From IMG/VR virus record IMGVR_UViG_3300046777_001585, positions 1 to 56,448 of that record: a DNA stretch of 56,448 nt; one strand, written 5' to 3'. This DNA comes from a virus. Taxonomy: Duplodnaviria; Caudoviricetes. Numbering within the stretch: the first letter of the stretch is position 1; each line of letters begins with the position of its first letter. Below are positions 7,911 to 10,081 of the stretch, in pieces. The notes below the pieces were generated by a model. It made no database searches and was not told the origin of the DNA. It worked only from the letters and a program-made list of their open reading frames with translations. The position numbers and the translations under genes are program-made.

Positions 7911-8819
7911 ATGGCAATTTCACGCGCACAGCTTGTAAAAGAACTTGAGCCGGGTTTGAACGCCCTGTTCGGTCTTGAGTACAAGAACTACGAGAACGAA
8001 CACACGGAAATCTACGACATCGAGTCGTCTGACCGTGCGTTTGAAGAAGAAGTGATGGAAGCCGGCTTTGGCGAGGCTCCGGTGAAGAACGAAGGCGCTG
8101 GCGTCGCTTACGACCAGGCGCAGGAAGTCTACACCGCCCGCTACACGCACGAGACCATCGCCCTGGCGTTCAGCCTGACCGAAGAAGCGGTTGAGGACAA
8201 CCTCTACGACCGCCTGTCGGCTCGCTACACGAAGGCGCTGGCCCGTTCCATGGCTACCACCAAGCAGATCAAGGCCGCTTCCGTGTTGAACGGTGCCTTC
8301 GACACCTCTCTGGGTGGTGACGGCAAGCCCCTCTGCGCGACGGACCACCCGACCCTGTCGGGACCGGACCTGCGCAACGAGCTTGAGACGGCGGCGGACC
8401 TTTCGGAAACTTCCCTTGAGCAGGCGCTCATTGACATCGCGGCGTTCACTGACGAACGCGGTCTCAAGATTGCCGTTCAGGGCCTGAAGCTGCTTATTCC
8501 GAAGGAACTTCAGTTCACGGCGGATCGTATCCTGAAGTCCACACTCCGTGTCGGCACTGCGGACAACGACATCAACGCTATTCGCAACATGGGCATGATT
8601 CCCCAGGGCTACACGGTCAACCATTACCTGACCGACCCCGATGCGTGGTTTGTTAAGACCGACGCACCGAACGGGATGAAGATGTTCCAGCGTGTTTCGA
8701 TCAAGACTGGCTTCGAAGGCGACTTCGACACCGGCAATGTTCGATACAAGGCTCGTGAGCGCTACAGCTTCGGCTTCAGCGATCCGCGCGGCATCTTTGG
8801 GTCGCCTGGTTCGGCCTAA
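7911..8819 (+). CDS. Major capsid protein (HK97 fold, Mu gpT/HTVC010P-like)
   Basis: MAISRAQLVKELEPGLNALFGLEY, TEEAVEDNLY and KARERYSFG; strong SD gaggt; followed by a terminator. Confidence 0.92.
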   Translation: MAISRAQLVKELEPGLNALFGLEYKNYENEHTEIYDIESSDRAFEEEVMEAGFGEAPVKNEGAGVAYDQAQEVYTARYTHETIALAFSLTEEAVEDNLYDRLSARYTKALARSMATTKQIKAASVLNGAFDTSLGGDGKPLCATDHPTLSGPDLRNELETAADLSETSLEQALIDIAAFTDERGLKIAVQGLKLLIPKELQFTADRILKSTLRVGTADNDINAIRNMGMIPQGYTVNHYLTDPDAWFVKTDAPNGMKMFQRVSIKTGFEGDFDTGNVRYKARERYSFGFSDPRGIFGSPGSA

Positions 8820-8840
8820 CCTGGGAGAAATCCTTGAATT

Positions 8841-8867
8841 AAGGGGGCTGTCAAAGCCCCCTTTTTT
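8841..8867 (+). terminator. Rho-independent terminator after the MCP
   Basis: aagggggct-gtcaa-agccccctt followed by a T-run. Confidence 0.85.
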
Positions 8868-8886
8868 CATCTAGACTCTGACTTAT

Positions 8887-8954
8887 CTAGGGTTTTTTTA
8901 CCTGTGCCGACTGTCCTAGCAGACTTTGTAGAGACGGTACAGGAAGTGCTACAA
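8887..8954 (+). ncRNA. Candidate structured RNA: three-way junction with two pseudoknots
   Basis: P1 8901-09/8935-43, P2 8911-13/8920-22, P3 8924-25/8932-33. Loop UCCUAG pairs with 8887-92 and loop UUGUAG pairs with 8949-54. Confidence 0.65.
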
Positions 8955-8968
8955 CACGAGGATAAAAC

Positions 8969-9469
8969 ATGGCTTCTACTACTTTTTCGGGTCCAGTAAC
9001 GTCGACCAACGGCTTTATTGGAAATGTCACGGGCGCTGTTACTGCTACAACCCCGGTCAATGCCACGGCGTCCACTCTTGCCGTCACTGCGGCCACGCAC
9101 GGCGGACGTGTTGTTACCCTTAATCGTGCAGCGGGCATCGCCGTCACCCTTCCGGCTGCTTCTGGCAGCGGCACCGTTTACCAGTTCGTGATCGGCACGT
9201 CCGTCACGAGCAATTCGACCACCATCAAAGTGGCCAACGCCAGCGACACCATGACCGGTTCCGCTTATGTAATCTCGGACGGAGCGGCGGCGGTCCTCGG
9301 CTACAAGACGGGGGCTTCTGACGACACGGTCACCTTTAACGGCAACACCTTGGGTGGCCTAAAAGGAGATACGGTTCGCCTCGTTGATGTTGCGGCGAAT
9401 CTGTATTCGGTACAGGTGCTGTCGCAGGCGACCGGGACTGAGGCGACTCCTTTTAGCGCTACGGTCTAA
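8969..9469 (+). CDS. Virion structural protein (capsid fibre/decoration-like)
   Basis: MASTTFSGPV N-terminus typical of the post-MCP gene in this group; Thr/Ala-rich; SD gagg. Confidence 0.7.
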   Translation: MASTTFSGPVTSTNGFIGNVTGAVTATTPVNATASTLAVTAATHGGRVVTLNRAAGIAVTLPAASGSGTVYQFVIGTSVTSNSTTIKVANASDTMTGSAYVISDGAAAVLGYKTGASDDTVTFNGNTLGGLKGDTVRLVDVAANLYSVQVLSQATGTEATPFSATV

Positions 9470-9480
9470 GGGGCTCACAC

Positions 9481-9783
9481 ATGAGCTTCGCTAGTGACAT
9501 TCAGGCCGTCCGAAAGACGGCCACCGGGGATGCTGTTTCTGGACGAACTCGCCTCGCTGGGCTGTATTTCACCCACACCGCCACACCCGCAACGATCACG
9601 TTGCGGAGTGGTGGCTCGGGCGGAACCACCAAGTTTGCGATCACCAGCCCTGCTGCCGCGGGATCTCAGGACATGATTATTCCTGACAACGGCATTTTGT
9701 TTGAAAGTGGCATTCACATAACCCTTAGCAGCGCGGAAATCACCACGGTTACCCTGCTGTTTGTGGGCGGCGCTGCGGCGTAG
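9481..9783 (+). CDS. Small beta-rich structural protein
   Basis: IPDNGILFESGIHIT motif; tightly packed in the structural operon. Confidence 0.7.
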   Translation: MSFASDIQAVRKTATGDAVSGRTRLAGLYFTHTATPATITLRSGGSGGTTKFAITSPAAAGSQDMIIPDNGILFESGIHITLSSAEITTVTLLFVGGAAA

Positions 9784-9793
9784 GTTTTGGGCG

Positions 9794-10081
9794 ATGGCTA
9801 CCTCTAGAGGCATGGGCATCAAAACCTCGGTTCGCTCCGGTAATTTTCGCGCCACGAAGTCCGGGGCAGGAATGACCAAGAAAGGGGTTGCCGCTTATCG
9901 AAAAGCCAATCCAGGGAGCAAGCTGCAGACAGCAGTCACGGAAGACAATCCCAAAGGGACAAGAGCAAAGCGCCGTAAGTCTTTCTGTGCGCGCTCTGAA
10001 GGTCAGATGAGGATGTTTCCAAAGGCTGCCAACGACCCTAATAGTCGGCTAAGGCAGGCTCGGAAACGCTGGAAGTGCTGA
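9794..10081 (+). CDS. Basic conserved phage protein (DUF6321-like)
   Basis: GAGMTKKGVAAYRKANPGSKL...RRKSFCARS...DPNSRLRQARKRWKC is a widespread phage family. The ATG at 9794 is preferred. Confidence 0.75.
   Translation: MATSRGMGIKTSVRSGNFRATKSGAGMTKKGVAAYRKANPGSKLQTAVTEDNPKGTRAKRRKSFCARSEGQMRMFPKAANDPNSRLRQARKRWKC

Follow-up and report, generated by a model that had tools for sequence, protein, structure and literature searches.

The stretch of DNA discussed here, which we call the window throughout, is a complete virus record in IMG/VR (IMGVR_UViG_3300046777_001585; Duplodnaviria, Caudoviricetes; 56,448 nucleotides (nt), with an estimated completeness of 91%), and our subject is a small element at positions 8887-8954 of its + strand, just past the major capsid protein gene. 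The element encodes a compact three-way-junction RNA tied together by two pseudoknots: the fold is conserved among relatives, the + strand RNA is the molecule under selection, a single copy is found in the whole record, and the link to the gene immediately downstream is fixed. It is a well-supported small RNA fold that no current family model detects. As to what it does, our preferred though tentative answer is that it works as a cis-acting 5′ leader, which would protect the end of the message and tune the ribosome-binding site for a capsid-surface gene and the late genes.

The fold and its conservation

Helix P1 pairs 8901-8909 with 8935-8943 over nine base pairs (bp), one of them a G-U (8906/8938), and closes a junction from which two further hairpins, P2 and P3, project. 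Neighbouring helices are separated by exactly one A, at 8910 (J1/2), 8923 (J2/3) and 8934 (J3/1), and each of these lies within a G-A-C step (G8909-A-C8911, G8922-A-C8924 and G8933-A-C8935, respectively). P2 (8911-8922) is formed by CUG at 8911-8913 and CAG at 8920-8922, and its 6-nt loop L2, UCCUAG (8914-8919), pairs with the CUAGGG that opens the element (8887-8892), making the first pseudoknot, PK1, from five Watson-Crick pairs and a terminal G-U. P3 (8924-8933) is closed by C8924-G8933, with U8925-A8932 added in the window's subtype, and presents loop L3, UUGUAG (8926-8931), which is complementary throughout to CUACAA at 8949-8954 and forms with it the second pseudoknot, PK2. A U-rich spacer (8893-8900), variable in length in relatives and there mostly 5-12 nt, joins the PK1 strand to P1, while on the other side the 3′ strand of P1 ends 14 nt, and that of PK2 3 nt, before a Shine-Dalgarno sequence, GAGGA (8958-8962), whose AGGA is nearly invariant in the alignment. 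The ATG start codon of a gene for 166 amino acids follows at 8969. Most of this had been put forward in an earlier sequence-only reading of the same DNA, and P1, P2, the three single A residues, both loop-flank complementarities and the position after the terminator of the capsid gene and ahead of the next ribosome-binding site are all present in the window as it described them. P3, which that reading drew as CU/AG, stands in part: the C-G closing pair is conserved, but the second pair, U-A, is limited to the window's subtype and is G.A elsewhere, and across the aligned relatives P3 is essentially one conserved C-G closing pair.

Relatives were fetched through similarity of the capsid protein and fall into four sets, namely 80 IMG/VR loci near the window's capsid protein (set 1), 80 marine loci near the capsid of pelagiphage HTVC027P (set 2), 80 metagenome loci (set 3) and 15 loci out of bacterial genome assemblies (set 4). 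The search used a covariance model, R1, built on P1, P2 and the P3 closing pair alone, with the pseudoknots left out, whose match in the window covers 8873-8979. R1 matches 68 of the 80 loci in set 1, plus the window itself and phages DSL-LC04 and HTVC023P; 64 of 80 in the marine set, plus HTVC027P (E up to 0.48, with 23 further rows at E 0.79-9.8 located elsewhere and treated as noise); 66 of 80 in the metagenome set; and 11 of the 15 genome-assembly loci. Taken together, 198 of the 240 viral and metagenome loci, from two capsid lineages, carry the element, and in all 198 it lies directly 5′ of the same gene. Among the 12 loci of set 1 that R1 does not match, five are cut by a contig end (L016, L051, L056, L062 and L005, where the end falls inside the element), two (L046 and L047) bear the Rfam motif Mu-gpT-DE instead, and in five (L060, L061, L064, L074 and L078) there is another post-capsid open reading frame (ORF) and the sequence ends before the target gene is reached.

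It is covariation that carries the case for the fold. This was counted in two alignments, A3, with 56 distinct rows fitted to P1, P2 and P3 but not to the pseudoknots, and A7, an independent alignment of the metagenome set with 60 distinct rows. Over all 25 pairs of A3, 93.8% of 1394 cells hold standard pairs, compared with 75.5% after shuffling (none of 500 shuffles reaches the observed figure) and with 27-49% when partners are slid by 1-3 columns, and the covariation score is 0.511 against 0.170 for the shuffles, again with none of 500 reaching it. In A7 the corresponding values are 91.3% against 69.8% of cells paired, and 0.541 against 0.179. The pseudoknots hold up in their own right: PK1 is paired in 91.1% of A3 cells, with changes on both sides at four of its six pairs, and in 89.9% of A7 cells; PK2 is paired in 90.3% of A3 cells, with changes on both sides at five of six pairs, and in 84.0% of A7 cells, a conservative figure, since A7 places the window's subtype off register by 3 columns. 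In both alignments all 10 model pairs of P1 change on both sides, and P2 is paired in 99-100% of cells, its middle pair alternating between A-U, U-A, G-C and C-G. In DSL-LC04, the nearest named phage, four pairs of P1 and one of PK2 differ from the window's by compensatory changes. The compact double-pseudoknot RNA of the sequence-only reading is, in short, conserved, and the long-range pairings that it proposed covary across the post-capsid regions of relatives.

The junction itself is three near-invariant G-A-C steps. Among 168 distinct aligned sequences, the residues equivalent to 8910, 8923 and 8934 are A in 166, 167 and 167, the C-G that closes P2 on the junction side is present in all 168, and the closing C and G of P3 are each found in 166.

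Purely for description (the statistical test being the A3 and A7 counts), the matches were also parsed free of register, with the best register picked in each. The 202 R1 matches gave 196 parsed elements and 162 unique sequences, six hits being excluded (L176, L179, L183, L193, L194 and L218, with L176 and L183 cut by a contig end). All five core pairs of PK1 are standard in 158 of these 162 sequences and come in 17 haplotypes, for example CCGGG, CUAGG, CUAUA, CUGUA, CCGAG and CCAAG, and all five core pairs of PK2 are standard in 152, in 15 haplotypes. P1 has 95 distinct 5′ strands and a tally of 1450 Watson-Crick, 98 G-U, 5 A-C and 29 other pairs. Since G-U outnumbers A-C by 98 to 5, the selected molecule is the + strand RNA. 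Other approaches were tried and set aside. A MAFFT alignment of 106 trimmed leaders split the PK1 strand over a long gap and was unused for pseudoknot counts; a pseudoknot-fitted model, R2, brought PK1 into register, left PK2 of the window's subtype 3 columns off, broke P1 in some marine rows and was not counted on; and a first register-free cross-control proved weak, with near-identical loops and A+U-rich flanks pairing by chance (48% of the PK1 cross pairs, and 39% of pairings with shuffled flanks, attained 5 bp).

Thermodynamics alone gives no support for the fold, because 39 of 200 shuffles fold as well as the nested structure of 8880-8968 (-21.3 kcal/mol, where shuffles average -18.6; z -0.94). 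A single-sequence fold no better than shuffles, together with palindromic CTAG and CCGG cores that create extra chance pairings (such as a hairpin at 8870-8891), is what can be said for the notion that there is no functional RNA here, and that the complementarity is due to chance or belongs to a DNA-level site such as an operator. We regard that notion as almost certainly wrong, given the compensatory changes in every helix in two independent sets, the strand-specific excess of G-U over A-C and the 202 matches to R1 among 255 loci, the window and four named phages.

The setting of the leader

The gene upstream (7911-8819, + strand) encodes a 302-residue, Mu gpT-like major capsid protein, with matches to PF25209 Phage_capsid_4 (E 3.6e-13), PF10124 Mu-like_gpT (E 1.8e-6) and PHROG 371 major head protein, and a terminator scan places a strong intrinsic terminator behind it on the same strand (8841-8869), consisting of a 9-bp G+C-rich stem at 8841-8863 and then a T run. 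The element is the leader of the downstream gene, not the 3′ tail of the capsid gene, because it stays with the former despite insertions: in L020, L021, L058, L069, L072 and L075 an ORF has been inserted after the capsid gene and the element is still directly 5′ of the homologue of the 166-residue protein, and in marine relatives it lies ~550 nt past the capsid stop, with two small ORFs between, directly before the same gene. The insert in L058 (2527-3450) is a 307-residue GIY-YIG + NUMOD3 homing-endonuclease gene between the capsid gene and the leader, and ORFs occupy the same spot in L020 and L021 (2452-2979), L060, L061, L064, L072, L074, L075, L078, L196 and L220, the one in L020 having no Pfam match.

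On its 3′ side the element keeps close company with the ribosome-binding site. In every one of the 156 unique sequences whose PK2 has at least 5 bp, the end of the PK2 strand lies between -3 and +5 nt from the best Shine-Dalgarno match; the strand abuts that match in the commonest freshwater subtype (77 of 79 within -3 to +1), ends at -1 to +5 nt from it in the window's subtype and overlaps it by 2-3 nt in 54 of 56 sequences of the marine subtype. Because the spacer between P1 and PK2 ranges from 0 to 13 nt, PK2 follows the ribosome-binding site and not P1. This arrangement also bears on the thought that the element might be a free or oligomerising small RNA, whose loops and flanks would pair between molecules in the manner of phi29 packaging RNA (pRNA) and whose multimer would act in assembly. 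Covariation, of course, cannot separate pairing in cis from pairing in trans, and Rfam types the related Mu-gpT-DE as 'Gene; sRNA'. We nevertheless judge a free RNA to be extremely improbable, as no terminator separates the fold from the Shine-Dalgarno sequence and start codon that directly follow it, the position of PK2 goes with that of the ribosome-binding site, the spacers have the length that pairing in cis requires and no Rfam pRNA model matches at E up to 10.

The subtypes have peculiarities of their own. In the commonest freshwater subtype (Type-B; L014:2478-2500, for example) the PK1 strand CCGGGG may also pair, in a hairpin of 4 bp, with a CCGG that extends over the first two bases of P1; this alternative pairing is missing in L027 and in the window's subtype and is probably not selected. 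In L241 (2199-2300) and its near-identical relatives the third loop is CUCC, resembling an anti-Shine-Dalgarno sequence, and pairs with the GGAG of the ribosome-binding site, L249 (2191-2293) carries another variant leader, and phage 023Pt_psg01 (L083) lies outside the reach of R1 and has a divergent version, seen by eye.

On the 5′ side, the window holds a putative weak promoter (8848-8877, + strand) made up of CTGTCA at 8848-8853, an 18-nt spacer and TAGACT at 8872-8877, whose -10-like box ends 9 nt before the PK1 strand. This site, the promoter of the sequence-only reading, overlaps the terminator, agrees with the consensus at only 8 of 12 positions and falls below the threshold of the sigma-70 scan. 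All 110 unique sequences examined have a TA-rich -10-like hexamer, taken as the best match in the stretch searched, whose end lies 5-12 nt short of PK1 (the distance being 7 nt in 53 sequences and 9 nt in 37). In 55 of 56 marine sequences TTGC[AG]C is found 15-19 nt upstream of the hexamer. Four public RNA runs searched with L091, a locus identical to that of HTVC027P, consist of contigs assembled out of mixed communities and show no molecule ends. A conserved -10-like box in this place agrees with a transcript starting at the first pseudoknot strand or close to it, and it would make processing of the transcript unnecessary, which counts against the idea that a ribozyme cleaves itself here to process the late transcript, giving a message with a 5′-OH. 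Self-cleaving ribozymes are common in phage genomes, and a small fold with two pseudoknots and conserved bases at its junction is characteristic of them; however, no Rfam ribozyme model (hammerhead, twister, twister-sister, pistol, hatchet or HDV-like) matches at E up to 10, a conserved dinucleotide that might be the cleavage site was not identified, and we consider a ribozyme very improbable. Within 8870-8899 the window can also form a weak alternative hairpin (8870-8875 with 8886-8891) followed by seven U, which overlaps the -10-like box and the PK1 strand and could compete with PK1 in read-through RNA; it is unconserved in relatives and is probably a by-product of the CTAG palindromes.

Neither Pfam nor PHROG has a family for the protein of 166 residues that is encoded by the gene behind the leader (8969-9469, + strand). 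A search at E up to 0.001 gives 2937 homologues of this protein, and a functional name is attached to none of the 120 listed; depositors have called homologues 'cement protein' (DSL-LC04) and 'minor capsid protein' (Pag-Yong1). The AlphaFold model of the window's protein has a mean pLDDT of 89.7, falling to 67-70 over the first ~30 residues, and the best structural match, over residues 24-154, is the C-terminal knob of the capsid spike of Pseudomonas phage Pa223 (Z 10.8, root-mean-square deviation 2.3 Å over 100 residues), followed at Z 8-10.5 by domains of the trimeric T4 gp10/gp9 and of CBA120 TSP4. The Pa223 preprint describes the spike as a homotrimer on the icosahedral threefold axes, with the N-terminal 40 residues as anchor (10.1101/2025.06.11.659172). 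In the window's protein, an N-terminal arm of ~30 residues, with a MA.TTFSGP start in relatives, precedes a beta-sandwich and is conserved in sequence while being modelled with lower confidence; the conservation is at the protein level, because synonymous codons vary there. Judging from the homologue names and the structural model, the product is probably a capsid-surface knob or decoration protein (of the 'cement' or spike-knob-like kind) with an N-terminal anchor. Inside its coding region, 9168-9220 gives a sub-threshold match to Rfam RpsF_leader (E 0.44; 19.9 bits, where the gathering score is 37), which we take as chance.

Planktothrix phage Pag-Yong1 (L002) and podovirus record MW202785 (L086) match neither R1 nor any Rfam family, and in Pag-Yong1 the equivalent intergenic region (L002:2403-2510) is G+C-rich and without the element, with an 8-bp stem visible by eye whose 3′ strand includes the ribosome-binding site and which would be a different solution. 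Very weak R1 matches (11-16 bits, E 0.8-9.4) also occur just upstream of the capsid start in L161 (2409-2511), L103 (2426-2511), L089 (2396-2511) and other marine loci, and these probably reflect only the part of the model that covers the ribosome-binding site and start codon.

As for distribution, the element occurs in hundreds of phage sequences from fresh and marine waters. Viruses of SAR11, a bacterium of the ocean, are among the carriers, and the cultured phages with the element are DSL-LC04, HTVC023P and HTVC027P. The group of HTVC023P and HTVC027P is described as the most abundant known pelagiphage type (PMC12753301). When leaders were compared by blastn with deposited phage genomes, that of the commonest freshwater subtype found nothing and the marine one found HTVC027P only.

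What the leader may do

Four functions had been floated in the sequence-only reading, namely an exonuclease-blocking 5′ cap, a translational switch for post-capsid genes, a ribozyme and an oligomerising RNA. Position and strand favour a leader acting in cis, as in the first two of these, no ribozyme model matches, and nothing supports a free or oligomerising RNA. In the mechanism that we tentatively prefer, transcription would start at the element's own promoter, a few nucleotides from the first pseudoknot strand. The RNA folds around a three-way junction of three G-A-C steps. P1 makes up the first arm, P2 together with a 5-7-bp PK1 between its loop and the first leader nucleotides the second, and a C-G-closed loop, pairing with a segment 5′ of or overlapping the Shine-Dalgarno sequence, the third. 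PK1 would bury the 5′ end and might slow 5′-end-dependent decay by RppH, RNase E or RNase J, PK2 would set the exposure of the Shine-Dalgarno sequence, and the net effect would be to fix how much capsid-surface protein is made for a given amount of the capsid protein encoded before the terminator. Perhaps the late operon RNA also has its stability set in this way.

Several observations weigh against this account. Folded as a single sequence, the window's element reaches a z-score of only -0.94, nested thermodynamic folding recovers P1 in 112 and P2 in 15 of the 162 unique sequences, and PK2 is short or absent in 6 of the 162. At the 5′ end, the -10-like hexamers are best matches picked without a control, a strict sigma-70 scan reports no promoter in the window and finds a correctly placed site in none of the 56 unique marine sequences and only 5 of the 54 of freshwater type, and a transcript start by the PK1 strand is something that we infer. 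Mu-gpT-DE, moreover, has no annotated pseudoknots and probably leaves a few 5′ nucleotides unpaired, so that burial of the 5′ end cannot be all that the wider group does. Finally, a plain stabiliser would not need a junction so nearly invariant in sequence, and this constraint suggests that a protein, a ligand or the ribosome may recognise it specifically; it is mainly for this reason that we keep two other explanations, a protein operator and a ligand sensor, under consideration.

The first of these, which we think unlikely though far from negligible, is a translational operator bound by a protein, either of the phage (the capsid-surface protein, the capsid protein or another late product) or of the host, which would lock PK2 and repress or trap initiation, thereby coupling synthesis to capsid assembly. 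Autoregulation of this sort has precedents in T4 gene 32, rpsO/S15 and the P22 scaffold. Here it would account for junction nucleotides that are near-invariant beyond the needs of base-pairing and for a PK2 that always abuts or overlaps the Shine-Dalgarno sequence, and there is in addition the likeness in length of the three arms (usually 8-10, 8-9 and 6-8 pairs) and the resemblance of the encoded protein to a homotrimeric spike knob. Against it, the subfamilies of the encoded protein's body, compared by eye, do not track RNA subtype. These features also invite a bolder idea, to which we give little credence, that a pseudo-threefold leader is bound by its own homotrimeric capsid-surface protein, so that free trimers shut off translation. 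In such a scheme, itself improbable, trimers would dock on the junction and lock PK2, and synthesis would be metered against open threefold sites on the capsid; if it were true, an RNA symmetry-matched to a trimeric capsid protein would be unprecedented.

The second explanation is a riboswitch-like sensor, in which the three-A junction and the conserved bases next to it would bind a small molecule or ion, stabilise PK2 and so alter how accessible the ribosome-binding site is. Pseudoknot riboswitches such as preQ1-II and SAM-II usually look like this, being compact folds that keep conserved nucleotides unpaired beside a Shine-Dalgarno sequence. This too we find improbable: no covarying, mutually exclusive alternative pairing was seen, the Shine-Dalgarno sequence stays outside the fold in the window's subtype (with a 3-nt gap), no Rfam riboswitch model matches at E up to 10, and a metabolite switch before a capsid-surface gene is without obvious logic.

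The cis-acting protective and tuning leader remains our preferred answer, and the element is abundant, structurally unusual and experimentally approachable. Natural variants come with or without each pseudoknot, and with a ribosome-binding site that is free, abutted or paired, which makes for a testable system. Should either 5′ protection or the sensing of an assembly protein turn out to be true, this would be a new mechanism for setting the ratios of phage structural proteins, and it would provide a compact module for RNA engineering.

Comparison with known RNAs

In overall plan, the element calls to mind the flavivirus-type exonuclease-resistant RNA (xrRNA), a three-way junction in which the 5′-most nucleotides and a segment past P1 are tied back by pseudoknots in a knot-like fashion. 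Both have this knot-like 5′ side and both have two flanks pseudoknotted into a three-way junction; however, the 5′ strand of an xrRNA pairs with junction nucleotides and the RNA resides in a 3′ untranslated region, whereas the element's 5′ strand pairs with a hairpin loop, by a ribosome-binding site, and the sequences are unrelated. A functional analogy is offered by the ompA 5′ hairpin of E. coli and the aprE leader of B. subtilis, in which structure at about +1, near the ribosome-binding site, stabilises a highly expressed messenger RNA. These are simple hairpins without conserved junction bases or pseudoknots, whereas the element has both, at a 5′ end that is itself an inference.

The T4 gene 32 leader, rpsO/S15, preQ1-II and SAM-II share with the element a pseudoknot helix that runs up to or into the Shine-Dalgarno sequence, and the element differs from all of them in its three-way junction with two loop-flank pseudoknots. 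The pRNA of phi29 likewise comes from a phage and is built on a three-way junction, with two loops making short Watson-Crick contacts outside their own helices, but it is a free RNA encoded at the genome end whose loops pair between molecules, whereas the element lies in the late gene block, within an mRNA leader that runs into a start codon, and its loops find their partners in the flanks. Fully paired kissing loops of 6-7 nt are familiar from TAR-TAR* and from ColE1 RNA I/II, and by analogy pseudoknots of 5-7 bp without linker nucleotides would fit a kissing-loop geometry.

The closest comparison is with Mu-gpT-DE (RF03012), a phage-associated motif of unknown function. The sequence-only reading had not recognised the element as a known family, and in one sense this is borne out: a scan of window positions 8000-10000 and 8870-8980 against Rfam 15, at E up to 10, gave no match on the element to any model, including those for Mu-gpT-DE, xrRNAs, ribozymes, riboswitches and pRNA, and the window does not reach the RF03012 gathering score of 49 bits. 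In another sense the relationship had been missed, as both the genomic slot and the junction are common to the element and RF03012. Each of them follows the terminator of a Mu gpT-like capsid gene (PF10124, E 1.8e-6, in the window) and extends up to the start codon of a homologous gene, and each has the three-A junction plan that the Rfam consensus gives as P1, A, a C..G hairpin, A, C-N(8-9)-G, A and P1′. The literature adds little: the name Mu-gpT-DE was found only in the CaCoFold paper and is absent from the main text of Weinberg et al. 2017, and we found no paper that joins pelagiphages with a pseudoknot, or an RNA motif with the gpT major head subunit.

The two models do not cross over. 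RF03012, run on six relatives of the element, gives no hit at E up to 1, and R1 has no hit on L046, L047, L085 or L088, all of which carry Mu-gpT-DE. RF03012 scores 59-72 bits on L046 (2472-2525), L047 (2470-2523), L170 (2168-2221), L173 (2175-2228), L174 (2173-2227) and, in the Roseobacter phages CRP-901 and CRP-902, L085 (2891-2943) and L088 (2870-2922). Its copies have a -10-like box ~10-11 nt upstream, and two of them, in L046 and L047, follow a capsid protein ~91% identical to the window's. Beyond the junction the layouts differ: Mu-gpT-DE is 53 nt long, with a 4-bp P1 whose 3′ strand overlaps the Shine-Dalgarno sequence, where the element has a P1 of 8-11 bp; its P2 has 5 bp (CAG..CUG) and a 9-nt loop, where the element's has 3 bp and, in the window, a 6-nt loop; and the annotation gives it no pseudoknots and treats its third segment as a 13-nt internal loop without pairs, where the element has two loop-flank pseudoknots of 5-7 bp. 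Between the two stand L247 (2184-2289) and L237 (2195-2299), which keep a long P1 and PK1, have a third loop containing AGCC as in Mu-gpT-DE, and are without PK2; to judge from their sequences, they look like intermediates.

From the alignments and model searches we conclude that the element is a distinct and more elaborate relative of the Mu-gpT-DE leader, outside RF03012 as that family is now defined, and in this way it gives context to what has been an orphan motif. The late operon that follows the capsid gene appears to be headed by a single kind of leader, of which the element and Mu-gpT-DE would be alternative forms.

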